Below are positions 24,725 through 55,785 of a stretch of 64,000 nt of DNA, piece by piece. The stretch is taken from positions 348,515 to 412,514 of IMG/VR virus record IMGVR_UViG_3300011989_000257; one strand, given 5' to 3'. The position numbers and the translations under genes are program-made. The notes below the pieces were generated by a model. That model ran no database searches, was not told where the DNA came from, and was given only the letters and a program-made list of their open reading frames with translations. Origin of the DNA: a virus (taxonomy: Duplodnaviria > Caudoviricetes). Within the stretch, counting starts at the first letter, position 1. Each line of letters starts with the position of its first letter.

Positions 24725-26002
24725 ATGAACATAAATATTACAGAAAACCAATATAACAATCTTATAATAAATGAAGCAGAAAACGTTGCATATAACAGAA
24801 GTAATGCTAAAGAACCTAATTTAAAAGCTATTTGGGCTGCAATTGATTCAAAACAAAAAATGCTTCAACAAGAAGTATTTGGTGAACTTAGTGAGAAAAT
24901 ATATGACATCACTATGGAAAAGGCTAAGTCAATGGGCGAGGAATATATGCAAATACCCAATAACATTTGTAATGCTGGTAATGACAAATTACCATCTAGT
25001 GTGCTTATAATAAATATGTCATCATCATTAATGTGTCCTTCATATTATTTAGGCATATGTACAATCACAAATGGCGCTTGTTATGCGCAAAGAGCAGAAA
25101 ATCAATATTCAGCAAAAGGTAAATCTAGTGTGTTGACCAATAGATGGAAAACTGACTTAATGCACACACAAATGTTGCAACAATATCAGCACGGAAACAA
25201 AAAACCAATGAAAGATTATTTTAATCTGATTGAAACATATATACAACTTGGTAATGCATATTCAGAAAACCTTTACAAAAAAGAACTTCAACGAATGCAA
25301 CTAAGATTAGGAAGAGAATTGACACAACAAGAAAAAAATTTTCTAAGAATACAACAATCAGAAAATAAGATAACTGATGTACGTATCAATGAAACAGGTG
25401 ATTTCCAATGCCAACTTGCAGTTGACCTATGGAGTAAATTTGCTGCAAAAATAAAGAAAAAATATGGTATAAACACACATGCATATACAGCTAGAAACCT
25501 AGATTTTTCAAAAGCAGTTGGAAATATGGCAATAAACCCTTCACACGAAGGAATTAATCTAGGAAATGTACAGCCTAGAATGTTCAAAGCAGTTGGGGAA
25601 AAATTCTACAATAGTTTACAAGGTGGAGACCAAGTTAAAAACAGACAACCTATACTAGGTGAAATTAACGGTAAATTCTTCTATAAGTGCCCTTGCAGCA
25701 GAGGTGAAACACACTGTGACCAATGTGGTGTATGCTTCGCAAAAAATCAAACAGGAAAGCCATATACAATATATGTCAAATATCATGGATTAATTGCTGC
25801 AAATGGTTTTAAAAACTTATTCAAAAAAGATGAAATAGAAAATGTAATAGAGAAACTTTATCAAAATGGTTGGATAACAGAAGAAGAATATAAATCATAC
25901 AATTCTCCAAAACAACAAAACTTCTTGAACAAAATATCAGCAAACATAGAAAAACAACGAAATCAAAAGGTAAAGACAAAAAGAAAAAAGGCTAAGAAAT
26001 AA
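24725..26002 (+). CDS. GP88-like Cys-rich (radical-SAM-like) protein with N-terminal leader
   Basis: GNDKL...CPS...C...CYA, RINETGDF, AYT, CPC...CDQCGVC pattern resembling the phage GP88 family. Confidence 0.65.
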   Translation: MNINITENQYNNLIINEAENVAYNRSNAKEPNLKAIWAAIDSKQKMLQQEVFGELSEKIYDITMEKAKSMGEEYMQIPNNICNAGNDKLPSSVLIINMSSSLMCPSYYLGICTITNGACYAQRAENQYSAKGKSSVLTNRWKTDLMHTQMLQQYQHGNKKPMKDYFNLIETYIQLGNAYSENLYKKELQRMQLRLGRELTQQEKNFLRIQQSENKITDVRINETGDFQCQLAVDLWSKFAAKIKKKYGINTHAYTARNLDFSKAVGNMAINPSHEGINLGNVQPRMFKAVGEKFYNSLQGGDQVKNRQPILGEINGKFFYKCPCSRGETHCDQCGVCFAKNQTGKPYTIYVKYHGLIAANGFKNLFKKDEIENVIEKLYQNGWITEEEYKSYNSPKQQNFLNKISANIEKQRNQKVKTKRKKAKK

Positions 26003-26013
26003 TCTTAGCCTTT
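25987..26013. terminator. Bidirectional terminator
   Basis: aaaggctaaga...tcttagccttt between convergent genes. Confidence 0.7.
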
Positions 26014-26030
26014 ATATTTTTCATCAAATT

Positions 26031-26210
26031 TTAAAACTCCCAGCCAAGCCATTGCTTTTTACCATGACCGCCAACCTCATCATCACCAATCTTTTTGTTC
26101 TTGATGCGAAGCCACTTATTCATCTGCTTTTTAGCCCATTTGTAGGACTTGCGCTTACGTCTCTTCTCAGAGTACATATAAGGCTCTAACTGTTCTCTAA
26201 ATAATGCCAT
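26031..26210 (-). CDS. Small basic hypothetical protein (59 aa)
   Basis: Hand-translated MALFREQLEPYMYSEKRRKRKSYKW...; starts 1 nt after the upstream stop. Confidence 0.6.
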   Translation of the reverse strand: MALFREQLEPYMYSEKRRKRKSYKWAKKQMNKWLRIKNKKIGDDEVGGHGKKQWLGWEF

Positions 26211-26211
26211 A

Positions 26212-26448
26212 TTATTTCTTTTTTCTTAAGTCAACAAACTTTATCCTCTCATTCTTAGGATTTGTGTTTGTAAGCTTCACAACAATATTGTCATTACACT
26301 TCTGTGCATCCATTGGAGGAAAAACAATAGGACGATACTGCACGTCTGTATTCAATGCAGAAAAAAACTCAGATAAATTAACTCCTACACTGCCACTGTC
26401 AAGTCTAATACCATGACATAGAGGCAATAAACATAATATCTTTTCCAT
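26212..26448 (-). CDS. Hypothetical protein
   Basis: Likely start MEKILC just downstream of the promoter at 26470-26500. Confidence 0.55.
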   Translation of the reverse strand: MEKILCLLPLCHGIRLDSGSVGVNLSEFFSALNTDVQYRPIVFPPMDAQKCNDNIVVKLTNTNPKNERIKFVDLRKKK

Positions 26449-26469
26449 TTTTTTTAATTTTTTGCATTG

Positions 26470-26517
26470 CAAATGTACGAAAAAAAGTTGGATTAACAAA
26501 ATTCTAATCCAACTTTT
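26470..26517 (-). promoter_or_regulatory. Fused terminator hairpin and sigmaA-type promoter
   Basis: TTTG-N19-TACATTTG overlapping inverted repeat aaaagttggatta/taatccaactttt. Confidence 0.75.
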
Positions 26518-26525
26518 AACATTTA

Positions 26526-27677
26526 TTATCTCCAATACATCCCTAAAGGTTTATTCTTCAAAACCCTAATAAGTTGTTCGTTTAGGTCTCCTTGGTTCTT
26601 CATTAGATTCCAAGGAAGCATCCTTTCCAACCTCTCCTTTAAGTCATTAAGAACAGCCTCCTTCTCAGACTTTCCTTGCTCAAGGAAAATAGAATAGTCC
26701 AATTTCATCTCAGCTTGCGGTATTTTAACCTCACCACTAGCATAACCACGAATATTTCCAAGCAGTATCTTAGCCTCTGCAACAAGCAAACGTCTTATAA
26801 TCTGCTGTGTTGGATAGTTCATCAATTCATATTTCATCTTATCCAACGGAACTTGGTCTGGGGTTATAATTACATCGTCCTTGTTCTCTATCATACAAAG
26901 GTCTGCGTCTTCAGCACTGCCACTCACATCATAGTATGTATACCAAACATAGCAATTAGCATACTTATTCCACCCCCAAGTATCATCAGCAGCAATACCG
27001 CCAACCATATTTGGAGAACCAGGAACGGACATTAAGTGTACTAAATGCGTACCTTCTGGTCCCGCTGTTACTTTGTAAGCCAAATCGCCTCTAAGTAATG
27101 AGTTCTTAAATTTCAAGTCAACTGACATGAGAGCTGTATCATATGCAGAACCTACATAGAAGCCTGTTATGCCCATGCCATTTCCCATATTTCCATATTG
27201 ACCAAAACCACCACCGATTCCTGTATCAAGCGTACCTAGATTACCATACAATGCTGCCTTAGTAGTAGAAGGTGTAACATACATTACTTTATTAATTTCT
27301 CTTCCTGCAGGTATTACATATACTTGTTTCCCTCTTTCTACTTGGAAGAAATCTTTTTTAAGTTCATAATTCCCACGTTGTTGTAACCCAACTTCTCTAC
27401 TAAACCAATATGAATAATCACGTGACCAATCCATTGTACGGACTGTCATAGCATATGCTAATTCGTTTGCGTTTTGGAACTGTATTTGGTTTTTACTTTG
27501 TAAATTAAGCCATTGTGTCTCAAGAACCCAATTCTGCACCTTTTCAGCATAATCACCTATTGCAATATCTAGTAAATCACACAATTGTTCATCTTCAAGT
27601 TGAACAGGACGTATTGGAGCACCCATTGTTGTTCTAACCAATTTAAACAAATGTTTTAAGTCTTCAGTTAATACCAT
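26526..27677 (-). CDS. Neck protein (T4 gp13-like)
   Basis: MGAPIRPVQLEDEQL..L..AI..Y N-terminus and LG.IRG..SG...P C-terminus resemble the gp13 family; late-type motif upstream. Confidence 0.7.
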   Translation of the reverse strand: MVLTEDLKHLFKLVRTTMGAPIRPVQLEDEQLCDLLDIAIGDYAEKVQNWVLETQWLNLQSKNQIQFQNANELAYAMTVRTMDWSRDYSYWFSREVGLQQRGNYELKKDFFQVERGKQVYVIPAGREINKVMYVTPSTTKAALYGNLGTLDTGIGGGFGQYGNMGNGMGITGFYVGSAYDTALMSVDLKFKNSLLRGDLAYKVTAGPEGTHLVHLMSVPGSPNMVGGIAADDTWGWNKYANCYVWYTYYDVSGSAEDADLCMIENKDDVIITPDQVPLDKMKYELMNYPTQQIIRRLLVAEAKILLGNIRGYASGEVKIPQAEMKLDYSIFLEQGKSEKEAVLNDLKERLERMLPWNLMKNQGDLNEQLIRVLKNKPLGMYWR

Positions 27678-27717
27678 AGTTTTTTTTTTAATATTTACTA
27701 TAAATATTTACCAAATA

Positions 27718-27749
27718 AAAAAAGCAGCAAGATTTCTATTGCTGCTTTT
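27718..27749 (-). terminator. Intrinsic terminator
   Basis: aaaagcagcaa...ttgctgctttt. Confidence 0.75.
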
Positions 27750-27921
27750 ATGTTTCTTCGTTTATTTCTTCTTCAGCTTCTCGTTTTATGAAAAGCCTCA
27801 TATATTTTTTTCTCCATTTGCTCCACATATGCTGTCTATCAGACTTATAATCCCTTTCACCTAGAAATGAATAAGACCTAAACGCATATTTAGTTTTTCT
27901 TTTCATTGGAAACCTTTTCAT
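27748..27921 (-). CDS. Small hypothetical protein (~57 aa)
   Basis: Hand-translated MKRFPMKRKTKYAFRSYSFLGERDY...; fills the gap before the terminator. Confidence 0.5.
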   Translation of the reverse strand: MKRFPMKRKTKYAFRSYSFLGERDYKSDRQHMWSKWRKKYMRLFIKREAEEEINEET

Positions 27922-28153
27922 ACCTTAATCTATGATTTGCCCTTATTTTACGTATTACTTCATCATGACTCATTCCATAATGCCGTGTAAATTCTCGTTC
28001 TGCTCTACAATCTTCTCTGATAAAGTTTTCAAACTTGAAATTATCTGACCAAGAATTATAATATTCCCATTTCTGTAATTCTCCTTTACACCACTCATCA
28101 GAATCTATCCCATAAGAATTTGCTATTCTCTTAATTTCATCAAGTAGTTCCAT
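27890..28153 (-). CDS. Hypothetical protein
   Basis: 87 aa ORF overlapping neighbours. Confidence 0.65.
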   Translation of the reverse strand: MELLDEIKRIANSYGIDSDEWCKGELQKWEYYNSWSDNFKFENFIREDCRAEREFTRHYGMSHDEVIRKIRANHRLRYEKVSNEKKN

Positions 28154-28535
28154 TTTTTATGTGCTCCATTTTTTCCTTAATCAATCTTCTCTGTAATTTC
28201 TTTGCAATTATATCCCCATGACAAGGTTTTGGTTTGCAAAAGCATTGCAAGTAAACATCCTCTCCATTCTTATAATGCTTATATATTTCATCAAATGCCT
28301 TTGTGAATTCTTCATTATTTCCATACATCTTATCGAAGTATTTATCATAGGCTTCAATGGCTTCTTCCCTTGTTTTAAAAGTAAGTGTTTTGAATACGCT
28401 TCTAACCCCATTATGGGAAAATGGATTGCCTAATGGACTACCTCTGCCTATATAGAAATTGTTAGGCTTATTTGTAAAATCTTCTTGATGACTATTATAA
28501 ACGTATATCATTCCTTTGTCTTTGTTAATTTCCAC
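28140..28535 (-). CDS. DUF4326-family protein
   Basis: YIGRGSPLGNPF...LQCFCKPKPCHGDII. Confidence 0.85.
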   Translation of the reverse strand: MEINKDKGMIYVYNSHQEDFTNKPNNFYIGRGSPLGNPFSHNGVRSVFKTLTFKTREEAIEAYDKYFDKMYGNNEEFTKAFDEIYKHYKNGEDVYLQCFCKPKPCHGDIIAKKLQRRLIKEKMEHIKNGTT

Positions 28536-29011
28536 TTATTATATGATAAAGCATCCCAAGGAGAAAGATACTTGTTATAGTTTGAGATATTTCCCTTAAT
28601 AAATTCATGCCATTTTTTTATAAGTCTTAAAGTCCAATATCGTTTATATCCAATTTTACTTGGAATCTCGGCATTCTCTCTCTCAAGGTATCTATTTTTC
28701 TTTTTTGTCGTACCTATAATTGATGGCATGTAATACAAAAGGTATCTCATAAAAGATGAAAGAGAAGTACAATATGATGATTCCCCATACTTACCAAGAT
28801 GATTGGCTGTATAAACGGTGTTATGCATGATTCTTTCAGCAAAAGTATTCTCAATTTCATGCACTTCTTTCTTTTCATCAATTCGCTTTCTCCACAAATA
28901 TTCATTTTGCTTATTTCGTACATTGATACGTATTTCAGTCATCAAAGCTAATCTCTCATTTGGTGTAACTCCGTTTTTTAGGAATAATTTAAATACTTCA
29001 GTAGGTGTCAT
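28508..29011 (-). CDS. Hypothetical basic protein
   Basis: 167 aa; N-terminus similar to its neighbour. Confidence 0.7.
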   Translation of the reverse strand: MTPTEVFKLFLKNGVTPNERLALMTEIRINVRNKQNEYLWRKRIDEKKEVHEIENTFAERIMHNTVYTANHLGKYGESSYCTSLSSFMRYLLYYMPSIIGTTKKKNRYLERENAEIPSKIGYKRYWTLRLIKKWHEFIKGNISNYNKYLSPWDALSYNKWKLTKTKE

Positions 29012-29490
29012 TTAATTTTTAATTTAAATTTATAGTTTTCTCCCTTTTTAAAAGGACTGTTGAATTTTTTATTGCTTTCTATATTTTCTTTTAAGAACTG
29101 TTTCCATTTTCTTTTATAGTAGTTTACATACATGCCACTATTCCAACTTTTGAAAATACATGGTCTATAAAAAGGTTCATACTCATCATACACCAAATAT
29201 CTCCTCCCTTCATTACGTTTATTAAAATCAATCTTGATAGATTTCCATCTAGGGTTTTCATAACGTTTTAGAGTTAAGTTAGGCGCAAGTATGAATAACC
29301 TAGTCATGTAGTTGTTTAAAGCCCTTCCATTCCTAGATAGATAATCTTCAACAAACGTTGAAGTGTACAGTGGTCTTTTCCTAAAATATTTATTGCCATT
29401 GTCCTTCAATATAATGTGTTTGAAAAACCTCATTTCCTCAATGGTACAACATTCCTTAAAGAAAAGAAATAATACTTGTGTAGCTGTCAT
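29008..29490 (-). CDS. Hypothetical basic protein
   Basis: 160 aa; host-type promoter upstream. Confidence 0.7.
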   Translation of the reverse strand: MTATQVLFLFFKECCTIEEMRFFKHIILKDNGNKYFRKRPLYTSTFVEDYLSRNGRALNNYMTRLFILAPNLTLKRYENPRWKSIKIDFNKRNEGRRYLVYDEYEPFYRPCIFKSWNSGMYVNYYKRKWKQFLKENIESNKKFNSPFKKGENYKFKLKIK

Positions 29491-29507
29491 TAATATTACT
29501 TTTTAAG

Positions 29508-29539
29508 CAAAGATATATAAAAAAAACATAAATAACAAA
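29508..29539 (-). promoter_or_regulatory. Bacteroidota sigmaA-type promoter
   Basis: TTTG-N20-TATCTTTG. Confidence 0.8.
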
Positions 29540-29541
29540 TT

Positions 29542-29712
29542 TTAGAATAAATTTTTATTTTCTTCTAAACTTTCATATAATTCTTTAACATCTTCCCTAG
29601 TTAACATAATATCATCAATATAATGCCCATACTTATCATACACTGTAAGCGTATAATTTCTCTCGTACTTATCGTACTTCAACTCGATTTTATCATTACT
29701 AATTATATCCAT
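29542..29712 (-). CDS. Small hypothetical protein (56 aa)
   Basis: Hand-translated MDIISNDKIELKYDKYERNY...; ATATTTAT motif upstream at 29730-29737. Confidence 0.6.
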   Translation of the reverse strand: MDIISNDKIELKYDKYERNYTLTVYDKYGHYIDDIMLTREDVKELYESLEENKNLF

Positions 29713-29755
29713 ATTACTTAATTTTTAGAATAAATATAACCATAATCCCAAAAAG

Positions 29756-29794
29756 AAAAATGCTGACCATCTTCACAGATAATCAGCATCTTTT
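29756..29794 (-). terminator. Long hairpin terminator ending the tRNA operon
   Basis: atgctgattatctgtgaagatggtcagcat followed by a T tract on the minus strand. Confidence 0.7.
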
Positions 29795-29853
29795 GTGGCA
29801 TATAAACCACTAAAACAACCTTTTAAATTTTATTTCTTATCCAAAAAAAAATC

Positions 29854-30057
29854 TTAATCCCAACCCCAAATCTCGTGAGACATTGGAAATCTCATAGACA
29901 TACGTTTCAACAGTTCATCCGTGAACCACTTCTTCTTACGGAAAAACCACTTAAACTTCTTATGGTCACTGCTCATTACATGTGCCCTCCAACTCTTCTT
30001 ATGCGGCATCTTATGCCAAAACCTTTTGGGGGTATTGTATTTCTTACCTTTTGACAT
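29854..30057 (-). CDS. Small basic hypothetical protein
   Basis: 67 aa, K/R/W-rich, downstream of tRNA-Gln. Confidence 0.6.
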   Translation of the reverse strand: MSKGKKYNTPKRFWHKMPHKKSWRAHVMSSDHKKFKWFFRKKKWFTDELLKRMSMRFPMSHEIWGWD

Positions 30058-30086
30058 ATTGCTATTATATATGCGTATATAAACAG

Positions 30087-30157
30087 TTGGGGTAGTAGGA
30101 TTCGAACCTACTCAAACAGCTCCAAAAACTGTTGTGCTACCATTACACCATACCCCA
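30087..30157 (-). tRNA. tRNA-Gln(TTG)
   Basis: Cloverleaf: acceptor TGGGGTA/TACCCCA, anticodon arm ACAGT-TTTTGGA-GCTGT, T-loop TTCGAAT; CCA not encoded. Confidence 0.9.
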
Positions 30158-30257
30158 ATGTAATGGGCATTTGGGCAATACCATAATACCCATATAGCAT
30201 CCGTTTGTTCCAATTATAGCAGTTAGTAACGTGATTTAAACAACTCGCCAAACAAAG

Positions 30258-30341
30258 TACCCTCGGAGGGACTCGAACCCTCACGTATATTTCAACACCA
30301 CATCCTTAGTGTGGCCTCTATACCAATTCGAGTACGAGGGC
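30258..30341 (-). tRNA. tRNA-Leu(AAG)
   Basis: Acceptor GCCCTCG/CGAGGGT, anticodon arm CCACA-CTAAGGA-TGTGG, long variable arm, GGTTCGAGTCC, discriminator A. Confidence 0.9.
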
Positions 30342-30347
30342 ATATCA

Positions 30348-30548
30348 TTATATATTAAAAATCTCAACGAATTTCTTTCCCAAATCTGTTAATTCAAATG
30401 AGCCATTATTTTCCTTAATAACGCCAAGATTAGCAAGTCTTTCAACGTTATTTTCACCAATGACTTCTGACAGTTTATCAATATTTCCTATCCCATCAAT
30501 AATCATTGGCTCATGCATAATGGTTTTAAATGGGATGTACTTTTCCAT
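30348..30548 (-). CDS. Small hypothetical protein, possibly winged-helix
   Basis: 66 aa between tRNAs; LANLGVI...FELTDLG pattern. Confidence 0.55.
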   Translation of the reverse strand: MEKYIPFKTIMHEPMIIDGIGNIDKLSEVIGENNVERLANLGVIKENNGSFELTDLGKKFVEIFNI

Positions 30549-30549
30549 G

Positions 30550-30633
30550 TAGCTCTAGAGGGACTCGAACCCTCACGCCATCGCTGACACTTGATTTTGA
30601 GTCAAGCCTGTCTACCAATTCCAGCATAAAGCC
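30550..30633 (-). tRNA. tRNA-Leu(CAA)
   Basis: Anticodon arm CTTGA-CTCAAAA-TCAAG, long variable arm, GGTTCGAGTCC. Confidence 0.9.
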
Positions 30634-30680
30634 ATAAAAAATAAAATTGCATTATGAATTAAAATTATCAACTCATAATG

Positions 30681-30712
30681 CAAAGATATGAAAAAAAATT
30701 GAAATAACCAAA
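30681..30712 (-). promoter_or_regulatory. sigmaA-type promoter of the tRNA operon
   Basis: TTTG-N20-TATCTTTG. Confidence 0.8.
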
Positions 30713-30726
30713 TTTATTAATAAAAA

Positions 30727-30855
30727 TTAACGAATAATTCTTTTCTCAATTCTTCTACCACCAACACTTCCGTTATTAAGTGGGTTACTTGGTCTCTGTA
30801 CTGCTTGTTTACTTACAGTAGCTTGATTTTGTTTATTCTTACAACCGCATGCCAT
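30727..30855 (-). CDS. Small protein MACGCKNK... (42 aa)
   Basis: Hand-translated; N-terminus matches the MACNCK motif of 11351..11593. Confidence 0.55.
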   Translation of the reverse strand: MACGCKNKQNQATVSKQAVQRPSNPLNNGSVGGRRIEKRIIR

Positions 30856-30881
30856 GATATTATATATTTTTAATAACGTTA

Positions 30882-31331
30882 TTAATACTCAGAAAAATAA
30901 TCTTGCTCACTTGGTATGTCATCTCCGCTATAATCAATCTCAACATTCTTCTCTAAAGTCTGTTGAATGATTCCATTATCTTGGATTGGTAGACATTCAC
31001 CATCTTTACAAATAACAATCTCAACAACTTCAATCGTTGGATTATCTACAATTTCATCTGAGCCATCTGGCACATCATAAGAACTAGTTCTCATATCTTG
31101 TCGCATATATGGATTAGTTTCAACGACAAATTCTATTTGCGCTATTGCATCACCTTGCAAACTAACCTCTATATCGTTTTTCCCTTGATTAGCAATCAGT
31201 TGTTGCTGCACAAGACTTTGCGCAATTGATTGCAAGAGGAAATTTTCATCTTGTTCACGCAATACTCTCAGCACACTACGTTGAATGAGATTATGCAAAT
31301 CTGACTCAGTTAATCTAATTATTTTCTTCAT
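30882..31331 (-). CDS. LTE-leader family protein with acidic cargo
   Basis: MKKIIRLTESDLH...VLRE leader; ATATTTAT upstream at 31352-31359. Confidence 0.8.
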   Translation of the reverse strand: MKKIIRLTESDLHNLIQRSVLRVLREQDENFLLQSIAQSLVQQQLIANQGKNDIEVSLQGDAIAQIEFVVETNPYMRQDMRTSSYDVPDGSDEIVDNPTIEVVEIVICKDGECLPIQDNGIIQQTLEKNVEIDYSGDDIPSEQDYFSEY

Positions 31332-31379
31332 TTTAAATGTAATTTTCTAATATAAATATACAATAAAGTTAGAAAATAA

Positions 31380-31604
31380 TCAATAATTAACATTAATTTC
31401 TTTCAAAATTTGCTTGGTTAGGTCTTTTTCATAACACCAGCGTTTATAATTGGTTATTGGTTTAACCAATCCATACCTACTATAGAATTTATTATCTTCT
31501 TCATTGAACCAAACATGGGCTATTTTGCCGCTTGTTGTTAGAATCAATATTCTATCAATTTTGCTGTTTGGTTTCTCCTCTTTCAACGTTTTCCAAATGC
31601 TCAT
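31380..31604 (-). CDS. Hypothetical protein
   Basis: 74 aa; W...EEKP N-terminus reminiscent of DUF551-like proteins. Confidence 0.6.
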   Translation of the reverse strand: MSIWKTLKEEKPNSKIDRILILTTSGKIAHVWFNEEDNKFYSRYGLVKPITNYKRWCYEKDLTKQILKEINVNY

Positions 31605-31804
31605 TTTTGTTTATATTGTCCTATTTTACAACGGACATAACTATCAGTATCATGCCCATCAACTTTGCATCGACCATCATATCCAGTTCCAATATGAAAA
31701 TTCACTATTCCCATATTCTCGAAATGTACACAAGTGTAACATTCCCCATAATGTGAACAACATTTATTACTCATAATCCTAAATAATCTAAAATTGGATA
31801 ACAA
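31601..31804 (-). CDS. Small Cys-rich hypothetical protein
   Basis: CYTCVHF...GRC...C pattern; start may be MSNK. Confidence 0.55.
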   Translation of the reverse strand: MLSNFRLFRIMSNKCCSHYGECYTCVHFENMGIVNFHIGTGYDGRCKVDGHDTDSYVRCKIGQYKQK

Positions 31805-33020: not shown

Positions 33021-33026
33021 ACTACG

Positions 33027-41460: not shown

Positions 41461-41508
41461 GGTTCTTCAATATTTTCAACATAATTATTTTTATTAAAAA
41501 ATAAAAAT

Positions 41509-41543
41509 AAATGCCCAACAATTAAACAGTTGTTGAGCATTTA
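41509..41543 (-). terminator. Hairpin/terminator
   Basis: aaatgcccaaca...tgttgagcattt. Confidence 0.55.
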
Positions 41544-44495: not shown

Positions 44496-44837
44496 TTACT
44501 TTTTTCTATTACCCATAGAGAAACCAGGTGTTCTATCTAATGCTGGTTTCATATCAACTTGATTTGTCTTTGCTTGAGTCACATCACCAAGATTATGTGC
44601 TTGACGCATGATAGGTTCACTGAATGCGTTTCCTCCTACTTTTTTTTTATTCTTGCCTCCAAACGCAGGAGCATCAATATGATTCTTGGCTTGCCCAGCA
44701 GCACCTCCTACGTTAATACCAACACAGTTCGTAGCGCCACCTCCACCAATCTCACCATCTTCTTTAAGTATCCTATATACAGATTCCTTTACGATGTTTT
44801 TTAATTCACTCTCTGTCAATCTTATAATTTGTTTCAT
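44496..44837 (-). CDS. LTE-leader family protein with Gly-rich cargo
   Basis: MKQIIRLTESEL...ILKE leader; ATATTTAT at 44860-44867. Confidence 0.75.
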   Translation of the reverse strand: MKQIIRLTESELKNIVKESVYRILKEDGEIGGGGATNCVGINVGGAAGQAKNHIDAPAFGGKNKKKVGGNAFSEPIMRQAHNLGDVTQAKTNQVDMKPALDRTPGFSMGNRKK

Positions 44838-44894
44838 ATATGTAGACAATTATTTACATATAAATATACTTTTAATGTTAAAATTGTTAATTTA

Positions 44895-46042: not shown

Positions 46043-46184
46043 CTTCCTTGATATATTTTTCGTTTCTTATTTCTTTCAGCTTTGATATGCTGAAGCATTC
46101 ATCCTTGTAATTCTCGTTATCCTTTATCATGGTGTTATCGCCATCAAAGCCATAAAAATCCAATGTTCTTATCTTATCTTTCAT
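46038..46184 (-). CDS. Small hypothetical protein (48 aa)
   Basis: ATGA overlap with the upstream stop; MKDKIRTLDFYGFDG... Confidence 0.5.
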
Positions 46185-46774
46185 ATTTTTTTCCTTTTTT
46201 TATTTATTTTGTTATTGTAAATATCAGTAGCTTGCTTTACATATTCAGGTGCTCTCTCATCACTTATCACACCCATCGTTAATGGAGAATTGAGCATTGT
46301 ATCTATCTCTCCTCTCATGTTTATGTCATTCCCTAGGTCGTTGTCATGAAGCATTACACCCTTTGATGTATGATAAGCCTCATTAATTCCAAAAAAATCA
46401 TTGTATAATTTCCTTATAAAAGACTTTTTGATTGGATTACCTATTCTTTCTTTATCCCTCATTTCCTTTCCAATCTTATCATTCCAGTCATATTTGACAT
46501 AATAACGAGATTGTTTGCGCCCAGTTGTCTCATCATAAGGTTCGTCAATTCTCTCCTCCTTGGTGATTATGCCATAGTCATATAGTTTCTTCCTAAGTTC
46601 ACCATTATGAAGCCCACAGCCCTTTAAAATATCATTTGGCACTGCTCCTATCGGGTCTCTGCGTATCCCATCTACAAATGACACAACACTTTCATAAAAA
46701 TCTTGAAAAGGTGGTCTCCTATTATCTTCTAGAAGTCTGTTAAAAACAGATTCATTTATATGTATTAACTTCAT
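46181..46774 (-). CDS. Hypothetical protein with leader variant (IHINES...LLE)
   Basis: 197 aa in late-type operon. Confidence 0.7.
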   Translation of the reverse strand: MKLIHINESVFNRLLEDNRRPPFQDFYESVVSFVDGIRRDPIGAVPNDILKGCGLHNGELRKKLYDYGIITKEERIDEPYDETTGRKQSRYYVKYDWNDKIGKEMRDKERIGNPIKKSFIRKLYNDFFGINEAYHTSKGVMLHDNDLGNDINMRGEIDTMLNSPLTMGVISDERAPEYVKQATDIYNNKINKKRKKI

Positions 46775-46980
46775 CTAGTGATTCCTCCTTTCCATGTACT
46801 GCTACGATTCCACAAAGTACGGAACAAGTCTTCAATAACCTCTGCTGTGACCTCTTTAACTGCTTTCTTAAAGTCCCTTGAGTTATATGCAGATGAAATA
46901 CGGTTGGATACAATCGATTCAACCTCAGTTTTATTTATCTCCTCATTGATTATCTCTCTTATTCTATTCTCTGAAATCAT
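46771..46980 (-). CDS. Small protein with leader variant (ISE...IINE)
   Basis: 69 aa; ATATTTAT at 47001-47008. Confidence 0.65.
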   Translation of the reverse strand: MISENRIREIINEEINKTEVESIVSNRISSAYNSRDFKKAVKEVTAEVIEDLFRTLWNRSSTWKGGITR

Positions 46981-47020
46981 ATAATATATCTATTTTACAT
47001 ATAAATATCATAAACAACAA

Positions 47021-47048
47021 AAAAGGATGCTATTTCCTAGCATCCTTT
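47021..47048 (-). terminator. Intrinsic terminator
   Basis: aaaggatgcta...tagcatccttt. Confidence 0.75.
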
Positions 47049-47764: not shown

Positions 47765-47784
47765 ATAACTTATTTTTTGTGGTG

Positions 47785-47832
47785 TAAAGATACAAAAAAA
47801 AATTGGACTGACCAAGAATCAATCCAATTTTT
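47785..47832 (-). promoter_or_regulatory. Fused terminator hairpin and sigmaA-type promoter
   Basis: CTTG-N20-TATCTTTA overlapping the aattgga...tccaatt hairpin. Confidence 0.65.
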
Positions 47833-47840
47833 AACATTTA

Positions 47841-48041: not shown

Positions 48042-48048
48042 ATTTATA

Positions 48049-48624: not shown

Positions 48625-48626
48625 AA

Positions 48627-48986: not shown

Positions 48987-49001
48987 ATAATATAAATATT
49001 T

Positions 49002-49727: not shown

Positions 49728-49745
49728 ATTGATTGATTAAACACT

Positions 49746-52115
49746 TTATTTCAAAACTACCTTTGAAATATTATTTTCTTTCACTACTGAAACATGGCAA
49801 TCACACCAGTCATAAACTTCGCTAGAATGACTTATCAAAAACAATGCATCATATTGTTTTGATACCTTCTCCAAAAGACTCTTCATATTTTCATAGTTAT
49901 TCTTTGAGACTCTCCCAAATACCTCATCCAACGTACAAATCGAAGCCTTCGGAATTGTTGATAATTCTGACAATACTGCTCTCAATGCTATTCCACTAGC
50001 AGTAAGTTCAAATCCACTTCCACTGCTCAAATCTGAATAAATGCCATCTTTAATCAAATAGAACATTACGTCATTCTTCTGGTTTATTGCAACTTCAACG
50101 TCAAAATCACAAACATCACTTAACAATTTTGACAATTTTGCATTTATAATTGGTAATGTTTTCCTAAGTACCATTTTGGAAATACCGTCTTTGCCAACAA
50201 GTTCAAGATAAATCTTCCAGTTTCTAACAAGTTTTTCCTCCTCTTGTAATTTCTTAATTACCTCTCGTCTGTCCTCAATTTGCCTATTATAATTCTTTAT
50301 ATCAGTCTCATGCCTTGCAATGATAGTAGCATTTGTCTCCTTTGTATTTCGTTTATCTCGTATAAATACATCGTTATTGCGAATTTGAATATCTATTGAA
50401 TTATTTTTATCAATCGCCTCACTATTTTTATCATATTCTTTTTTTAATGTATTATACTCTTGGTATTCGTTTCTAAGTTTTTCTACATTAACTTCTAATG
50501 CAGCCTTCTTAACAGTTAAATTTGATTTTTTATTATATTTTTCCCTGTTTGTTTTAAGTTTTTCAATCTTTAAAGTAAGATTCTCTTTAAGTATCCCTTT
50601 TTCCTTGCCTTCTCTAGTAATTTTATCTAGTTCCTTCTTAAATTCATCTATTTTCTTAGAATTATCCACATTGTCAAGTTTTCTTCCGCAAGTAGGGCAA
50701 ACCTCACTTGATTTAAGATGCTGTATGTTATGCTCAATGTTCCTATACCTCTCTCTCATAACGGAAATTTCACTTGTGAGCTTTGTTAATTCAGCTTGCA
50801 AGGTATCATACTCTTCAATTGAAAAATCAACATTGCCTATTTCGTTGAGTTCTTTATCGATTTCTTTTATGTCCTCTTTTTTCTTCTTTCCATTGAAAAT
50901 GCTATCCTCAATCTTTTTCTTAAGCGTTGTTATATCTATCTTAAGTACTGAATCATCAACAGTGGATTTTGATGACAATAATGTCTCCTTGGTTTTCTCA
51001 AGCCCTTCGATTTCCTTGTCTAATGATTTGTTCTCATTAGTAAGTTTTTCTATTTCTTTGGCCAACGTTTTCTTCTGTATCTCAAACGAATCTACTTCTT
51101 GTAGCATTGTTTCTTCATTAAACCTATTGGAAAGAAGCATAGGCTTAACACTAGTATTGAATCTTTCCCTTGCCAATTTATCTTTTTCCTCAATTGGTAA
51201 TAATCCTATCCATCTTGACAAAAGTCTTCCCCTATCAGCCTCCTTTTTATTCACAAGGTCATCTAATGTAGATTCCGTAACAGACATTATTAAGTCAAAG
51301 TCACTTTCAATACCAATGGCCTCTTTGATTGCTTTATTGGTTTGTATACCATTCTCTTCTTGCTGATTCTCAATATCATATTCCTCAAGTTCTTGCATTG
51401 AATCACCAGCAACCTTATAGTATTCGACCCTTTGCGTTGTTTTGCTCTTATCGCTCCTCCTATCTAATGATGGTCTTGTCAACGTTCTTTTAATTATATA
51501 ATCAATACCATCAATAGTAATACATCCTTCCACTGTTACATTTGTTTCCTTCGGTAGATGTTTGTTGAATATCTTATCTTGAGTTGCTACTTTCTCAGTT
51601 TTACCAAATAATAGGAAATGTATTAGGTCAATCGAAAGAGTTGTTTTTCCAGATTGGTTCTCTCCGCTTAATGATGTAAGACCATGAATATTGGTAAAAT
51701 CAAAATAGTTATTAGAACCATAACTTAAGAAATTATTCCATTTAACCCATTTTATTGAATATCTTCTATACTTGTCATATACCTTGTAGTCAATACAACT
51801 GTTTATTTCAGCATCAATCTTCTTTATAAGTTCAAAATCATAATTATCAATTTTTTTATTTTTGATATATGATTCAAACAATTTCAGTTGGAACTGTGGG
51901 TCTTGAATGTTCTGTATTATATCAGTATTAAGAGACATTTTCTCACCATTCTCATCCACCATTAAGAACTCTGGAATAACTTTAATTCTTTCCTTTGGAA
52001 GATTGTATTTCTTACTGAATTTAGCAATAACAGATTTTTCCTTATCCTTACTGTAGTCATATGGTGATACATTCCAATGTATATTTATCTTTGACTTCTC
52101 TTTAACTTCAATCAT
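49746..52115 (-). CDS. SbcC/Rad50-like recombination ATPase (T4 gp46-like)
   Basis: NFLSYG, Walker A GENQSGKT, coiled coil with CPTC hook, SGFE signature, LDE, LISH. Confidence 0.9.
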   Translation of the reverse strand: MIEVKEKSKINIHWNVSPYDYSKDKEKSVIAKFSKKYNLPKERIKVIPEFLMVDENGEKMSLNTDIIQNIQDPQFQLKLFESYIKNKKIDNYDFELIKKIDAEINSCIDYKVYDKYRRYSIKWVKWNNFLSYGSNNYFDFTNIHGLTSLSGENQSGKTTLSIDLIHFLLFGKTEKVATQDKIFNKHLPKETNVTVEGCITIDGIDYIIKRTLTRPSLDRRSDKSKTTQRVEYYKVAGDSMQELEEYDIENQQEENGIQTNKAIKEAIGIESDFDLIMSVTESTLDDLVNKKEADRGRLLSRWIGLLPIEEKDKLARERFNTSVKPMLLSNRFNEETMLQEVDSFEIQKKTLAKEIEKLTNENKSLDKEIEGLEKTKETLLSSKSTVDDSVLKIDITTLKKKIEDSIFNGKKKKEDIKEIDKELNEIGNVDFSIEEYDTLQAELTKLTSEISVMRERYRNIEHNIQHLKSSEVCPTCGRKLDNVDNSKKIDEFKKELDKITREGKEKGILKENLTLKIEKLKTNREKYNKKSNLTVKKAALEVNVEKLRNEYQEYNTLKKEYDKNSEAIDKNNSIDIQIRNNDVFIRDKRNTKETNATIIARHETDIKNYNRQIEDRREVIKKLQEEEKLVRNWKIYLELVGKDGISKMVLRKTLPIINAKLSKLLSDVCDFDVEVAINQKNDVMFYLIKDGIYSDLSSGSGFELTASGIALRAVLSELSTIPKASICTLDEVFGRVSKNNYENMKSLLEKVSKQYDALFLISHSSEVYDWCDCHVSVVKENNISKVVLK

Positions 52116-52459
52116 TTTTTCTTAATTATTTGAATTTTTCTAACAGTTATACCTTCTTTTCTTTCTTCAGTTGGTTTGATTTCTTCTTTTTCTTTTGTGG
52201 CTGGTTTTCCTTCTTCAATTGAGGGTTCTTTTTCCATTGGTTTAACGTTATTTTCTTTTCTACCATTGGTTTTCTTAATGTCTTTTATTCCCTTATTTTC
52301 CCTTTCAGCATTATCTTTTGGTGAAGTACCAAACTTGACAATGCTGAATCCTTGAGATAAGCAACGATTTGCAAATGCATTGATATCATCTATCTCGTTC
52401 AACTCACAATATTGACGAATTTGCTTCTCAAGTGTCTGGTTCACATACAATCTGCTCAT
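52112..52459 (-). CDS. Hypothetical protein
   Basis: 115 aa; promoter 4 nt upstream. Confidence 0.7.
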   Translation of the reverse strand: MSRLYVNQTLEKQIRQYCELNEIDDINAFANRCLSQGFSIVKFGTSPKDNAERENKGIKDIKKTNGRKENNVKPMEKEPSIEEGKPATKEKEEIKPTEERKEGITVRKIQIIKKK

Positions 52460-52463
52460 ACTG

Positions 52464-52495
52464 CAAAGATATATAAATTTTTTTTAATTAACAAA
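52464..52495 (-). promoter_or_regulatory. sigmaA-type promoter (leaderless)
   Basis: TTTG-N20-TATCTTTG-CAGT-ATG. Confidence 0.8.
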
Positions 52496-52601
52496 TTTTA
52501 ATAAATATTTTTTTAATTTTTTTTAATATTATATTATTTTATTTATTTAATATATTAATATAATATTATATTTTTTATTTAAAAATATTTTATTATATTA
52601 T
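52493..52601. other. 109-nt tract with no G or C
   Basis: Directly visible; lies between divergent genes. Confidence 0.9.
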
Positions 52602-53391
52602 GAACAAAGAGGGAAAAGAAGTATATTTGTCTTTAGATGTTTCAACTGCTTGTATTGGTATAAGCATTGTCATAGATGATGGTTCTGATTATGGTAAGAT
52701 TGTGGAATTAACTCACATCAGCCCAAAGGTATCGAGTAAAATTAAAGGTATAGAACAATTATTCTTAAAGAAAAAAATATTTGAAGAATTCCTTATCAAA
52801 TATAGAGACTTCGGAATTGACTATGTTGTTATTGAAGAGCCACTTCTAAGAAGCAACAATGTTAATACTGTATCGACATTGTTGCGATTCAATGGCATGG
52901 TTTCAGATTGTGTGTACAATATATTGGGAATTGTACCAAATTATATCTCATCATATGAGGCGAGAGAATATGCATTTCCAGAACTAATGGCTATAAGAAA
53001 ATATGGGAAGGATGAGAAACAATATACCTACAATAAGATTATGAAGGAAATAAAGGACTGTAAATTAGTTCTATTTGGTAGCTATCCTTGGACTATTGAC
53101 AAGAAAACTGTTCTTCAAGGGAAGGTTGCTGATATATTTCCAGAAATTGAATGGTTATATAATAAAAACGGTGAACTTAAAAAAGAGAACTTTGATGCTT
53201 GCGACTCATATGTAGCATTTCTAGGGTTTTTAAACAAAAAACGATACGGAGAACTTGATTTCAAGGTTCAAGAAATTGGAGCGCAAAATGACCCAGATAC
53301 AGCAATAGCTGTTAAGTATGACATATTATATTGGAATAAAGTAGAACATAGAACTACTTATATAGAACATGAAAAAAGCGAGGAAAAGTAG
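52600..53391 (+). CDS. RuvC-like Holliday junction resolvase
   Basis: LSLDVSTACIG, VVIEEP, FDACDS acidic motifs. Confidence 0.75.
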   Translation: MNKEGKEVYLSLDVSTACIGISIVIDDGSDYGKIVELTHISPKVSSKIKGIEQLFLKKKIFEEFLIKYRDFGIDYVVIEEPLLRSNNVNTVSTLLRFNGMVSDCVYNILGIVPNYISSYEAREYAFPELMAIRKYGKDEKQYTYNKIMKEIKDCKLVLFGSYPWTIDKKTVLQGKVADIFPEIEWLYNKNGELKKENFDACDSYVAFLGFLNKKRYGELDFKVQEIGAQNDPDTAIAVKYDILYWNKVEHRTTYIEHEKSEEK

Positions 53392-53404
53392 TATTCCTCG
53401 CTTT
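53374..53404. terminator. Bidirectional terminator
   Basis: aaagcgagga...tcctcgcttt. Confidence 0.7.
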
Positions 53405-53412
53405 AATTCTTT

Positions 53413-53742
53413 TTACCAAAACTTTAGTTTATTAACCATTTCATTGACCTCATTATTCTTAAGTTCTTCCATTAATTCACCAATAAATGATACAGTATTT
53501 TCCCAATCATAATCAACTTCATCATTTATTATCTTCTCATGAAATGATTTCATTTCATCTTTATCATTTGCTATTTGCGAAAATTCGTCTTGAACTTGAA
53601 AAGAATAATTCGTTATTCTGCCTATTTCAATAAGATGCTTATATAACTTATAAGCAGAATTAAAAGAAAGTTCAAACTTGTGTTTCACATTTATTTCCAA
53701 GAGAATCCTCTCAAGTGTCATTAAATTTTTAATTGTAATCAT
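53413..53742 (-). CDS. Hypothetical protein
   Basis: 109 aa. Confidence 0.65.
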   Translation of the reverse strand: MITIKNLMTLERILLEINVKHKFELSFNSAYKLYKHLIEIGRITNYSFQVQDEFSQIANDKDEMKSFHEKIINDEVDYDWENTVSFIGELMEELKNNEVNEMVNKLKFW

Positions 53743-53779
53743 TTTTTTTATTAAAGAATAAAAATATAGGATTAAGATA

Positions 53780-55312
53780 TCAATAGATTCTCACATCATA
53801 ACTATGTATAATTCTCCTATTGTTTAGGATTTTACTAAGTTTCTCCCTTGCAGCCGAAAGTCTATCGTTCCTTGGAGTGTTTTTCGGTAGTACTAGTGGC
53901 TTGCTAGAAGTTCTTTGAACCTTTGATATGTGTCTTATCCTTTTATGATTCATATACCATTTGAACCAACTAGAATTACATATCCCCTTGTCAAGATACT
54001 TTACTTTTATATCTTGGTTCTTCCAGCAACAATAATTGAATGATAATTGGTCTCTATGAGAACCATTCATAACCTCATTGCTCCAAGCCTCCATAAGCCT
54101 TATACAATCCTTATTGTTATGTTTCCTTATCAATATATTACTTTGCAACAAGCCATAACCTTTCGGAAACCCTTCTTTTTTATATCTTTCAATCTGTGGG
54201 TTAACGTTCTCAGCAGTGTCTTTTTTCATACTGATAACTGGTCTAACTTCATCATATATACACCCTCTTTGCGGGTGTTTTGGAACATATATTGAACAAT
54301 CATCAACTAGTATTTTCTTAATAAGTTCAGACATATTGCCTTTCACATCAACATTACCATCAACCCATATTGATATTTCGTACTCAGACAGTAATTTATG
54401 TGGATTAATCTTAACATATCTCTGTTTTTTAATCTGAGTAAGCCCTTCTGTTTCATTTGGTAACGGCTTTATGTCCCATATCTCACTCTTCAAATCCATG
54501 TTATCAGTAAAACATATATAATCGAAATTCTCATCTATGTATGAAGGCTCTATGAGTTGGTCATACCCACCAGTTATGCAAGTATATACAACGTTTTTAT
54601 TTCTCTCTGATGACCATAGCCTTTTATGCACCCTTAACCATTCGTCAATAGTCGTACTATGCCTTTTAAGCGTTGTATCCATCCAAGATGCATTGTTGTA
54701 ATGCACTATATAATCAGAGACTTTTATCTGTTCAGATTTTAAACCCTCCGAATCCTTACATAGAACAGCACCAGTATCATACATGTCTCCAGAAGGAGTC
54801 TTCCTTAAACCATGCATATAATTGTCATCGAAATAATGTATTCCGTATTTCTTGCACATCTCTGTGTTTATGAAACATATGAATGGAAGTATTCGATTTA
54901 TCTTAGATGTAGGCTGATTCTGAAGTTCTCCTACGTATACACAATCTTCTTGGAACATATCAGAGCAATCCCTTTTCAATAATATGTCTGAATCCATTAG
55001 CATGAAAGGCTCATTTAATATCTCCATACATTTCTCAACACTGATGCAATGTTTTGCACTACCCCAATAATTTCTTTTACCACCAGAACTCATTCTATTT
55101 GGATAGTTCTTCAACCATTCATCGAAGTTAATAATCTGGCCCTTTGTGTTATCTATGATAGACACATTATCGAACTTTGCAACAAATGGTGATTTATCAC
55201 TGTTATCGAATATATAAATAACAGCATCCTTAACAAACAAATTAATACTCCTTACCAAACACTCAGTAAGGTAGGGAGTATTATAATGTATTATAACAAT
55301 ATTTTTTTTCAT
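53780..55312 (-). CDS. Two-domain glycosyltransferase (GT-A/GT2-like plus DUF616/TOD1-MUCI70-like)
   Basis: Domain 1 IIHYNT...FDNS...MDSD; domain 2 VYTCITGGYD, CFTD, KINPH, SIWVDG, HPQRGCIYDE, RDQLSFNY. Confidence 0.8.
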   Translation of the reverse strand: MKKNIVIIHYNTPYLTECLVRSINLFVKDAVIYIFDNSDKSPFVAKFDNVSIIDNTKGQIINFDEWLKNYPNRMSSGGKRNYWGSAKHCISVEKCMEILNEPFMLMDSDILLKRDCSDMFQEDCVYVGELQNQPTSKINRILPFICFINTEMCKKYGIHYFDDNYMHGLRKTPSGDMYDTGAVLCKDSEGLKSEQIKVSDYIVHYNNASWMDTTLKRHSTTIDEWLRVHKRLWSSERNKNVVYTCITGGYDQLIEPSYIDENFDYICFTDNMDLKSEIWDIKPLPNETEGLTQIKKQRYVKINPHKLLSEYEISIWVDGNVDVKGNMSELIKKILVDDCSIYVPKHPQRGCIYDEVRPVISMKKDTAENVNPQIERYKKEGFPKGYGLLQSNILIRKHNNKDCIRLMEAWSNEVMNGSHRDQLSFNYCCWKNQDIKVKYLDKGICNSSWFKWYMNHKRIRHISKVQRTSSKPLVLPKNTPRNDRLSAAREKLSKILNNRRIIHSYDVRIY

Positions 55313-55314
55313 GT

Positions 55315-55785
55315 TTAACTATTTGCCCAATTATTATTGTCATCTGGGTCAATTCCTTGACGAAGAAGGTATTTGCCAGTTACAATTTTATAATCCCTTG
55401 GATTGAAACCATAATCAGCCATATCAACATCAAAATAGTCCTTCTTAAATTGTCTAAGTTCGCTTGGGTCATATTCACTGTAATCCCAACCATTTACTAT
55501 TTTATTAGTTGCTTTATTAACAGCAAAATGAGAATATCCTTGATTGTTTTTAAAAGATTCACCCTCTTCTTGAGCTTTAGGCATATTCTTATTCATAATT
55601 CTCATTTCGTCTCTATCCTCAACTGGGTCGTATTGTTGCGAAGGCGGTAATTCCCAAGCCTCCTTAATGGTTTTCTTTGACTTTTTATTCTCATATCTGC
55701 CCATTTCTTTTAACACGCCCTTTGCTGATTCCATAATCATTTTATGCAAATCATCCTCAGTCAATCTTACAATTTCCTTTTCCAT
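55315..55785 (-). CDS. LTE-leader family protein
   Basis: MEKEIVRLTEDDLH...VLKE leader; start at 55785. Confidence 0.75.
   Translation of the reverse strand: MEKEIVRLTEDDLHKMIMESAKGVLKEMGRYENKKSKKTIKEAWELPPSQQYDPVEDRDEMRIMNKNMPKAQEEGESFKNNQGYSHFAVNKATNKIVNGWDYSEYDPSELRQFKKDYFDVDMADYGFNPRDYKIVTGKYLLRQGIDPDDNNNWANS

Follow-up and report, generated by a model that had tools for sequence, protein, structure and literature searches.

A Conserved 26-Residue Leader on Unrelated Proteins of a Rumen Prevotella Jumbo Phage Is a Candidate Capsid-Targeting Sequence

The Leader and Its Conservation

The stretch of DNA analysed here, hereafter the window, is the final 64 kb of a single 412,514-bp viral contig (IMG/VR record IMGVR_UViG_3300011989_000257) that has a G+C content of 34.5% and is rated complete by CheckV; coordinates marked G000 refer to the whole 412,514-bp genome, and plain coordinates refer to the 64-kb window. 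Five mutually unrelated open reading frames (ORFs) of the window open with the same leader, (M)KKIIRLTESDLHxIVKESVxRVLxE, and all five were found where an initial annotation made from the sequence had placed them (starts at 31331, 42025, 44837, 45898, and 55785, all on the minus strand). These tagged genes lie among replication and nucleotide genes (DnaB-like helicase, NrdD, 5'-3' exonuclease, and SbcC/Rad50-like), a glycosyltransferase, a GH108 endolysin, and numerous small ORFs without assigned function, with the minus strand predominating. The genome as a whole encodes a T4-type head and a contractile tail, including a Gp23-family capsid protein (PF07068, E 1.4e-64), a gp21-type prohead protease (gene at G000 79306-80067; Peptidase_S77, PF03420, E 1.7e-26, G000 79516-79977), portal, large terminase, sheath, tape measure, and baseplate wedge. 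The source is a rumen Prevotella phage with a T4-type head that belongs to a clade of rumen Prevotella jumbo phages; a megablast search with 10 kb of the window gave no match among cultured phages.

A hidden Markov model (HMM) built from the five window copies recovered six additional strong copies elsewhere in the genome, and a larger HMM was built from 127 unique viral copies. When the 568 ORFs of the genome were scanned with the larger model, the separation was clean: 11 proteins matched at E 1e-10 to 1e-18, followed by a 599-aa protein whose two diverged internal copies gave E 1e-6, and the remainder had E > 0.4. This whole-genome scan, which had been proposed along with the initial annotation, places five of the 11 strong copies at 80-97 kb of the genome, in the head module. 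The leader is N-terminal in 10 of the 11 proteins and in 129 of 156 unique copies from related viral contigs.

The logo of the 127 unique copies reads M-K-K-[IL]-I-R-L-T-E-S-D-L-H-x-I-V-K-E-S-V-x-R-I-L-x-E, in which the LTE triplet is conserved at 99-100%, Arg at 91%, His at 88%, Ser at 82%, and the final Glu at 95%; the segment L-T-E-S-D-L reads as a hydrophobic staple and capping box at the start of a helix. If the final Glu is taken as P1, position P3 is Ile in 67% of copies, Val in 21%, Tyr in 6%, and Leu in 1%. At no position past the final Glu does any residue reach more than 18%, with Gly, Asp, Glu, Asn, and Ser prevailing, so that the abrupt end of similarity first noticed among the window copies holds in the larger set. 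The same is true of the claim that different synonymous codons encode the shared peptide. Of 668 pairs of identical leader residues, 44% have their codon in common, where codon usage alone would predict 40%, and leader Ser is written with both TCN and AGY codons. The synonymous sites are thus saturated, and selection on the leader works at the peptide level.

Linkage to the Head Module and the Prohead Protease

Within the head module one tagged gene begins 5 nt past the stop codon of the protease gene, two sit between the portal and protease genes, which is the position of the core genes 67 and 68 in T4, and one heads the operon that contains the terminase gene. The five near-complete related jumbo records with the leader all encode the protease and hold 8 to 29 leader copies each; in three of the five, or in four genomes counting this one, tagged genes lie no more than about 1.3 kb from the protease gene. 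Leader-bearing contigs of middle size are fragments that are 30-53% complete. Lack of a gp21-like protease had been named as an observation that would speak against a capsid-targeting role; a Peptidase_S77 protease is present, and tagged genes adjoin it.

The capsid-targeting sequences of T4 are N-terminal propeptides of 10-19 residues that attach to the core; gp21 cuts them off after L/I-x-E, and they have already been proposed as a means by which T4-like phages load varied proteins (PMC9026906). The end of the leader carries (L/I/V)-x-E, which at the level of sequence matches the L/I-x-E specificity of T4 gp21. In the T4 record AF158101, IPII and IPIII begin with MKTYQEFIAE and the IPI propeptide closes with ITE, gp67 starts with a helix that contains L/I-x-E sites and continues into an acidic tail, and gp23 has the site FLTE/A at residue 65 (here and below, the slash marks the known or candidate point of cleavage). 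The local capsid protein has [LI]-x-E/A-T at residue 60, with a middle residue that varies in six related phages (LIYE, LISE, and LLKE), and the T4 gp23 site aligns 12 residues downstream of this, at an invariant GSFE/T. The local capsid protein would therefore have two candidate maturation sites, [LI]-x-E/A at residue 60 and GSFE/T.

Architecture and Families of the Cargo Domains

We refer to the part of a tagged protein that follows the leader as its cargo. In the AlphaFold model of the 42025 protein a helix at residues 9-26 (low confidence) is followed by a disordered segment at 27-58 and an alpha/beta domain at 59-150 with pLDDT of ~90; in that of the 55785 protein a helix at 10-27 is followed by a linker at 28-75 and a core at 78-156, the domain again having pLDDT of ~90. 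The linker in both modelled proteins is disordered and roughly 30-50 residues long. Given this arrangement of helix, linker, and domain, the leader looks structurally detachable from the cargo in the predicted models. A ribbon-helix-helix fold was rejected, since the models consist of a single helix and a disordered linker and the window proteins contain no Pfam match to that fold, and a Sec/Tat signal or membrane anchor was rejected on predicted structure and composition.

The cargo of the 42025 protein has 22 homologues in which the Glu preceding DFNQFSD is invariant. In one protein (P0174) a cargo of this type follows another domain and has no adjacent leader, yet K-I-T-E stands directly before it. 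The core of the 55785 protein (~80 aa) has >170 homologues; the leader is present on 98 of the 120 listed, separated from the core by a spacer of 0 to ~130 residues. The 55785 gene has an in-frame ATG upstream at 55830, and its close homologue P0183 begins at the leader. The pI of the cargos spreads from 4.1 to 10.2.

Foldseek searches found no match at E <= 0.001 to the 42025 or 55785 models in PDB, or to the 42025 model in BFVD, and a wide fold search with VIA-align using the 55785 model reached a best Z of 3.2. No informative leader or cargo family was found with Pfam and PHROGs among the window proteins, 137 top profile matches, host proteins, and operon neighbours, and Pfam identified neither a toxin domain nor a MuF domain in the window cargos and the 137 top matches. 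A PDB profile search with the leader matched idealised designed helical repeat proteins only. A separate observation concerns a tagged 187-aa protein encoded in a Prevotella metagenome-assembled genome (L097 8001-8564), which has a match to Tox-ART-HYD1 below the cut-off (E 0.006) just past the leader; we regard this protein as a lead for an ADP-ribosyltransferase cargo.

Upstream Element and Transcription Units

The element ATATTTAT is located 23-52 nt upstream of the start codon in the genes for tape measure, sheath, capsid protein, scaffold candidate (G000 77676-79169), and portal, as well as in the unit with the endolysin gene; we refer to units headed by it as late-type. Most of the tagged genes had been described as lying in operons headed by ATATTTAT, and all five window leader genes belong to such units (table 1). 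As a bare 8-mer the element is in modest excess in the window (31 vs. 17 expected), and its orientation upstream of genes whose upstream neighbour shares their strand is strongly biased (42 sense vs. 4 antisense, p 5e-9). Terminator-like hairpins bracket three of four leader-gene units. The unit headed at 56078-56085 comprises an 89-aa ORF (56059), the 55785 leader gene, the glycosyltransferase gene (53780-55312), and 53413-53742. Replication operons have Bacteroidota-type TAnnTTTG promoters instead. The tagged genes are found in late-type units and not in early ones, where their presence would have counted against the initial proposal, and they may be expressed late, together with the head genes.

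The distinction between two upstream classes extends throughout the window (e.g., 24640-24720, 29490-29540, 47765-47835, and 58565-58675): TAnnTTTG(C) stands before replication or early operons and ATATTTAT before structural, lysis, and leader units, commonly with hairpin terminators between units. The endolysin, a GH108 lysozyme with a peptidoglycan-binding domain (62380-62883), is encoded by the second gene of the ATATTTAT unit headed at 63260. Two further features of the window stand apart from the leader system. Three tRNA genes (Gln-TTG, Leu-AAG, and Leu-CAA; 30086-30633, minus strand) lie just downstream of the 31331 leader gene, and a gene on the plus strand (14110-16050) encodes a 646-aa protein with a PAP2 phosphatase domain at its C-terminus and lies in a local island of high GC (40%) and opposite skew amid minus-strand tail genes.

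Table 1. Leader-Tagged Genes, Weak Variants, and Transcription Signals in the Window
Feature	Position	Strand	Remarks
Weak variant MNINITENQYNNLIINE at N-terminus, 425-aa protein	24725-26002	+	ATATTTAT at 24696-24703; not HMM-significant
Leader-tagged protein, 149 aa	30882-31331	-	Leader is residues 1-26; acidic cargo, pI 4.1; E 2.8e-16
ATATTTAT	31352-31359	-	Upstream of 31331 gene; outside region scanned for terminators
Terminator-like hairpin	41508-41543	-	Ends unit 44837-41549
Leader-tagged protein, 158 aa	41549-42025	-	Final gene of late-type unit starting at 44837
Leader-tagged protein, 113 aa	44496-44837	-	Gly-rich basic cargo; heads six-gene late-type unit
ATATTTAT	44860-44867	-	Heads unit 44837 to 41549
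Leader-tagged protein, 174 aa	45374-45898	-	Q/N/A-rich helical cargo, pI 10.2; unit headed at 47001-47008
Weak variant MKLIHINESVFNRLLE at N-terminus, 197-aa protein	46181-46774	-	Weak-pattern class
69-aa protein beginning MISENRIREIINEE	46771-46980	-	Resembles helix-only leaders of 55785 cargo family; not statistically supported
ATATTTAT	47001-47008	-	Heads unit 46980 to 45374; after terminator-like hairpin 47022-47048
Leader-tagged protein, 156 aa	55315-55785	-	~80-aa core domain
ATATTTAT	56078-56085	-	Directly after terminator-like hairpin 56100-56125
124-aa protein	62886-63260	-	Heads late-type unit with GH108 endolysin; leader variant unsupported, E 3.9

Short and Weak Variants

Shorter variants of the leader had also been proposed for four genes of the window. 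None is significant by HMM; those at 24725 and 46774 fit an enriched class of weak N-termini, whereas those at 46980 and 63260 are unsupported. The class is defined by the pattern [ILV]x[ILV][TNSKR]Exx[LFIMVY] in the first 16 residues, which matches 12 of 556 N-termini (24725 and 46774 among them) against 0.18% of internal 16-residue segments, with a p value of ~1e-9 that is optimistic because the pattern was derived from the examples after they had been seen. Some members of the 55785 cargo family have a short helix in place of the full leader, for example MIRIINESVKSIIRE and MKHLDKIISETVNRFIIE, each of which closes with [LIV]-x-E immediately before the core domain, and in one related phage two genes past the protease gene begin with MKIIITEQAFRKLLKE and MKKILINEGQYKIL. 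These short forms in relatives lend independent support to the short-variant class.

Distribution of the Leader beyond the Genome

A profile search of 1.84 billion representative proteins identified 6,939 clusters matching the leader at E <= 1e-3, 1,135 of them at E <= 1e-10. The matching clusters are metagenomic and unnamed, many with two or three copies or with internal copies, and a search of the protein atlas with the leader likewise returned unnamed clusters only. Among the 50,697 phage records, tblastn searches with the leader and with a full tagged protein gave no match. A text search of the literature for the leader motif strings retrieved no paper containing them, and the papers on jumbo phages that were consulted make no mention of such a leader.

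Internal copies nearly always keep the Met and have in addition a short conserved linker (NESK, VENK, or ENKQYK), and one host protein unites two ORFs that phage contigs encode separately; by sequence, the internal copies look like products of gene fusion. In the genome studied here, a 137-aa protein (G000 6081-6494) consists of DUF3008, then the leader, then a short tail, and the 599-aa protein (G000 152316-154115) has a DUF3008-like C-terminus in addition to its two diverged internal leaders.

Association with IS1595-Family Transposons

The leader was found at 20 loci in genomes of rumen Prevotellaceae, including the isolates Segatella bryantii DSM 11371, Prevotella sp. MA2016, and Prevotella sp. 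tf2-5. At these host loci the tagged gene lies within a low-GC island of ~3 kb in DNA of 45-65% GC, and at nine of the 20 it is followed by a convergent IS1595-family transposase gene (DDE_Tnp_IS1595, PF12762, E 1e-43 to 1e-46), the end of which supplies the stop codon. In the three loci examined for them (L096, L100, and L103) terminal inverted repeats of 26-37 bp with the core GGCAATAACATAGAAGTTGACCCAA surround 2.5-2.7 kb, in which the tagged and transposase genes are accompanied by a small divergent gene, and other host loci are flanked by single or paired copies of the same repeat. The divergent neighbour gene was considered as an immunity partner and rejected, as it is unchanged when the cassette changes. 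Most host copies retain ATATTTAT or a near-identical element upstream. In the chromosome of S. bryantii (DSM 11371, NZ_BPTR01000001.1, ~3.247 Mb; L093 7881-8344) the leader gene stands alone and encodes 87 aa; its ATATTTAT and 5' leader region hardly differ from those of the phage genes at G000 81918 and 88087, and downstream of it lie 170 bp left over from an IS1595 end.

Two phage contigs contain cassettes (609 and 648 bp) that lack a transposase gene; each cassette has a single tagged gene between perfect repeats and is marked by a target duplication of 8 bp. Target duplications of 8 bp are seen at the cassettes in L041, L056, and window 60338-60645. The last of these, a 308-bp cassette without transposase, has IS1595-type inverted repeats (GGCAATAGCATAGATGTTGACC and GGGTCAACTTCTATGTGGTTG) and the duplication TTTCTTTA, and its 85-aa ORF (60359-60616, minus strand) is without leader. 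The phage has an IS1595-family transposase of its own (G000 232508-233530), which is 53% identical to the Prevotella copies and is flanked by a BspA-like leucine-rich-repeat gene and by a gene that by eye resembles the GIY-YIG type. The possibility that the window leader genes are themselves transposon cassettes was rejected, as no inverted-repeat remnants lie near any of the 11 tagged genes of this genome.

Comparison of loci revealed where cassettes are exchanged. A 279-kb jumbo phage contig (L057 4601-5298) and Prevotella sp. MA2016 (L095 7359-8056) share 699 bp at 95% identity, a segment that consists of an N-domain and the leader and indicates recent exchange between phage and host, with Prevotella as the host genus. 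In this pair and in at least four others, nucleotide similarity spans the leader and stops at its 3' end or no more than ~20 nt from it (L110/L111 at 96.8%, L095/L108, L096/L100, L093 vs. L103 and L094, and L057/L095 at 95%). The N-domain itself is a conserved region of ~170 aa (RxSNHGTWLxTW...) ahead of the internal leader in several IS1595 passengers (L095-L111, ~7400-8000); it has no match in Pfam or PHROGs, and in phage contigs L039 and L046 it has an ORF to itself, ahead of the leader gene.

Discussion

The leader is an evolutionary module boundary: cargo cassettes are swapped immediately past its end, and IS1595-family elements mobilize tagged genes. As to its function, we lean, with modest confidence, towards a long and highly conserved variant of the T4 capsid-targeting sequence that would be removed at (L/I/V)-x-E. 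Its parts would be a short hydrophobic N-terminal stretch (KKIIRL), a strongly capped amphipathic helix (TESDLHxIVKESVxRVLxE), and the terminal (L/I/V)-x-Glu. In the pathway that we infer, which covers late timing, docking, cleavage, packaging, and injection, tagged proteins would be synthesized late, the leader would dock them on the assembling scaffold core, the capsid shell would enclose the core, and a gp21-type protease would cut after the final Glu, freeing the cargo within the head. The conserved cargos whose genes adjoin that of the protease probably belong to the core or serve in assembly, as T4 gp67 and gp68 do, and the dispersed cargos of the window are candidate internal proteins that would exit together with the DNA. 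We have considerably less confidence in the window cargos being injected effectors than in the capsid-targeting role of the leader, and their identity as effectors is unsupported. The initial proposal of a head-loading tag accordingly survives in part: the protease, the late-type units, the (L/I)-x-E end, and the detachable architecture agree with it, whereas no cargo was identified as an effector, and the picture of a purely N-terminal tag restricted to phages proved too simple in view of the internal and multiple copies and of the transposon-borne copies in host chromosomes.

The system shares several features with the capsid-targeting sequences of T4 (IPI, IPII, IPIII, and Alt, processed by gp21). 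In both, a short N-terminal propeptide (a putative one here) ending in (L/I)-x-Glu is carried by unrelated small proteins, a gp21-family protease and a gp23-type capsid are present, and the genes are dispersed and vary among relatives. The differences are that T4 has about four tagged proteins as opposed to 8-29 per genome here and that the leader, unlike its T4 counterpart, has thousands of cargo clusters, internal and tandem copies, carriage by IS1595 elements, and copies in host chromosomes.

Several observations weigh against a capsid-targeting role. The leader has by eye no likeness to MKTYQEFIAE or the other IP propeptides, it is 26 aa long as opposed to 10-19, and it is far more conserved; the strong conservation of Arg, His, and Ser implies a very specific partner, which is not necessarily the scaffold. 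An alignment of the leader with the N-terminus of the scaffold candidate by hhalign gave a probability of 4.8%, a weak lead at best, on which the idea that the leader is a copy of the scaffold N-terminus was dropped. The tripeptide [LIV]-x-E is frequent in helices, and the leader contains an L-T-E of its own further in. Internal copies make up about 15% of the total and multi-copy metagenomic proteins are common, which is atypical for an N-terminal signal. Tagged genes are found in Prevotella and Segatella chromosomes, where the capsid is absent. The late class, finally, is deduced from the fact that ATATTTAT is common to structural and lysis genes.

A possible, if less probable, explanation is that the leader does target the prohead core and that the tagged proteins are assembly or inner-core components that are degraded or expelled during maturation, like T4 gp22, gp67, and gp68, instead of being injected. 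The head module accounts for half of the copies, some between portal and protease at the positions of T4 67 and 68, and these copies are conserved in related genomes; several cargos are very acidic and of low complexity, as are T4 gp67 and the local scaffold candidate; and no cargo matches a known enzyme or inhibitor. Such a role sits less well with the two window cargos that are compact, conserved, folded domains with many homologues, and the extreme diversity, mobility, and swapping of the cargos fit accessory arms-race genes better than essential scaffold parts.

It appears rather unlikely to us that the leader is a general docking or oligomerisation helix for a hub in the infected cell, be it a phage or host protein or nucleic acid, that acts independently of capsid and protease and uses the terminal Glu as part of a binding face. 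The strong conservation of the polar residues R, T, E, D, H, and S, the existence of internal, repeated, and C-terminal-like helix variants and of host-chromosome copies, and the restriction of PDB profile matches to idealised designed helices would all suit a docking helix. Such a helix leaves unexplained why several genomes have the leader tightly linked to the genes of the protease and the head, why conservation collapses exactly past [LIV]-x-E, why I-T-E is kept before the cargo of P0174, and why the leader, among the complete records tested, is confined to phages with a gp21-type protease; the host copies, moreover, are low-GC passengers of transposons that the hosts share with the phages.

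That the leader serves mainly as a recombination junction for cassette exchange, comparable to the VENN/Rhs motifs of polymorphic toxins and with trafficking as a secondary role, is very doubtful: similarity does stop at, or no more than ~20 nt from, the 3' end of the leader in at least five pairwise comparisons, but leader copies within one genome share codons no more than by chance, so that DNA homology is not maintained, the known junction motifs of polymorphic toxins also belong to trafficking or processing modules and would make exchange a consequence instead of a rival function, and no toxin-immunity pairs were found, the divergent neighbour gene not co-varying with the cassette.

If the leader is a capsid-targeting sequence, it invites comparison with other systems that direct proteins into viral heads or similar shells. 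MuF (SPP1 gp7-like) toxins and polyvalent proteins join an N-terminal head-incorporation module to swappable C-terminal effectors that travel with the delivered DNA. Trafficking there depends on a large folded MuF domain, and the C-termini can be recognised as toxins or enzymes. A constant N-terminal part, a variable C-terminal part, and recombination at the junction, evident here from the collapse of the logo and from the breakpoints, are shared with these systems, whereas the tag described here is a 26-aa helix. Encapsulin cargo-loading peptides are likewise short terminal peptides that steer diverse cargo into a shell of the HK97 fold. This is an analogy only: they are not removed by a protease, are usually C-terminal, function in cellular nanocompartments, and have no sequence relation to the leader. 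In the giant phages phiKZ, 201phi2-1, and SPN3US (gp175 and gp245), diverged gp21-type proteases remove N-terminal propeptides and cut many head-internal proteins after Glu (PMC9026906, PMC10052503). The phages considered here differ from the phiKZ type in having a close T4-type capsid protein and one uniform leader. To our knowledge, the propeptides of phiKZ-type phages are heterogeneous, with the motif S/A/G-x-E and without a single shared leader.

The tagged genes of hosts and of some phages share with IS1595 transposons and mobile insertion cassettes (MICs) inverted repeats of ~25 bp and 8-bp duplications, with or without DDE_Tnp_IS1595. Their passengers are phage genes of the late type that bear the leader and not resistance or metabolic genes, and the five window genes are without nearby repeats. 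Most simply, the host copies are passengers of transposons that shuttle between phage and host. Possibly they also have a role in their own right, be it as a decoy, in defence, or as a reservoir, which would be new. A more speculative prospect, which we consider distinctly improbable, is a three-way traffic in which IS1595 elements and cassettes shuttle genes bearing both a late-type element and a capsid address between jumbo phages and Prevotella chromosomes. The intact host copies would then be activated by the late machinery of an infecting phage and loaded into its heads, either as a Trojan horse of the host or the transposon, sabotaging the virion or hitching a ride on it, or as a chromosomal reservoir of swappable cargos.

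Should the capsid-targeting interpretation be correct, the leader would offer a simple sequence rule by which to list the packaged, and possibly injected, proteins of uncultured rumen and gut Prevotella jumbo phages. The T4 capsid-targeting sequence has already been used to load foreign proteins into capsids, and the leader would be a ready tag for doing so with capsids of the kind described here. The segment that is 95% identical to a cultured Prevotella isolate ties these phages to their host genus, and the link to IS1595, together with the exchange of cassettes at the end of the leader, suggests a route by which the cargo set diversifies. The 6,939 clusters, nearly all without known function, would then be a source of candidate proteins for anti-defence and host takeover.

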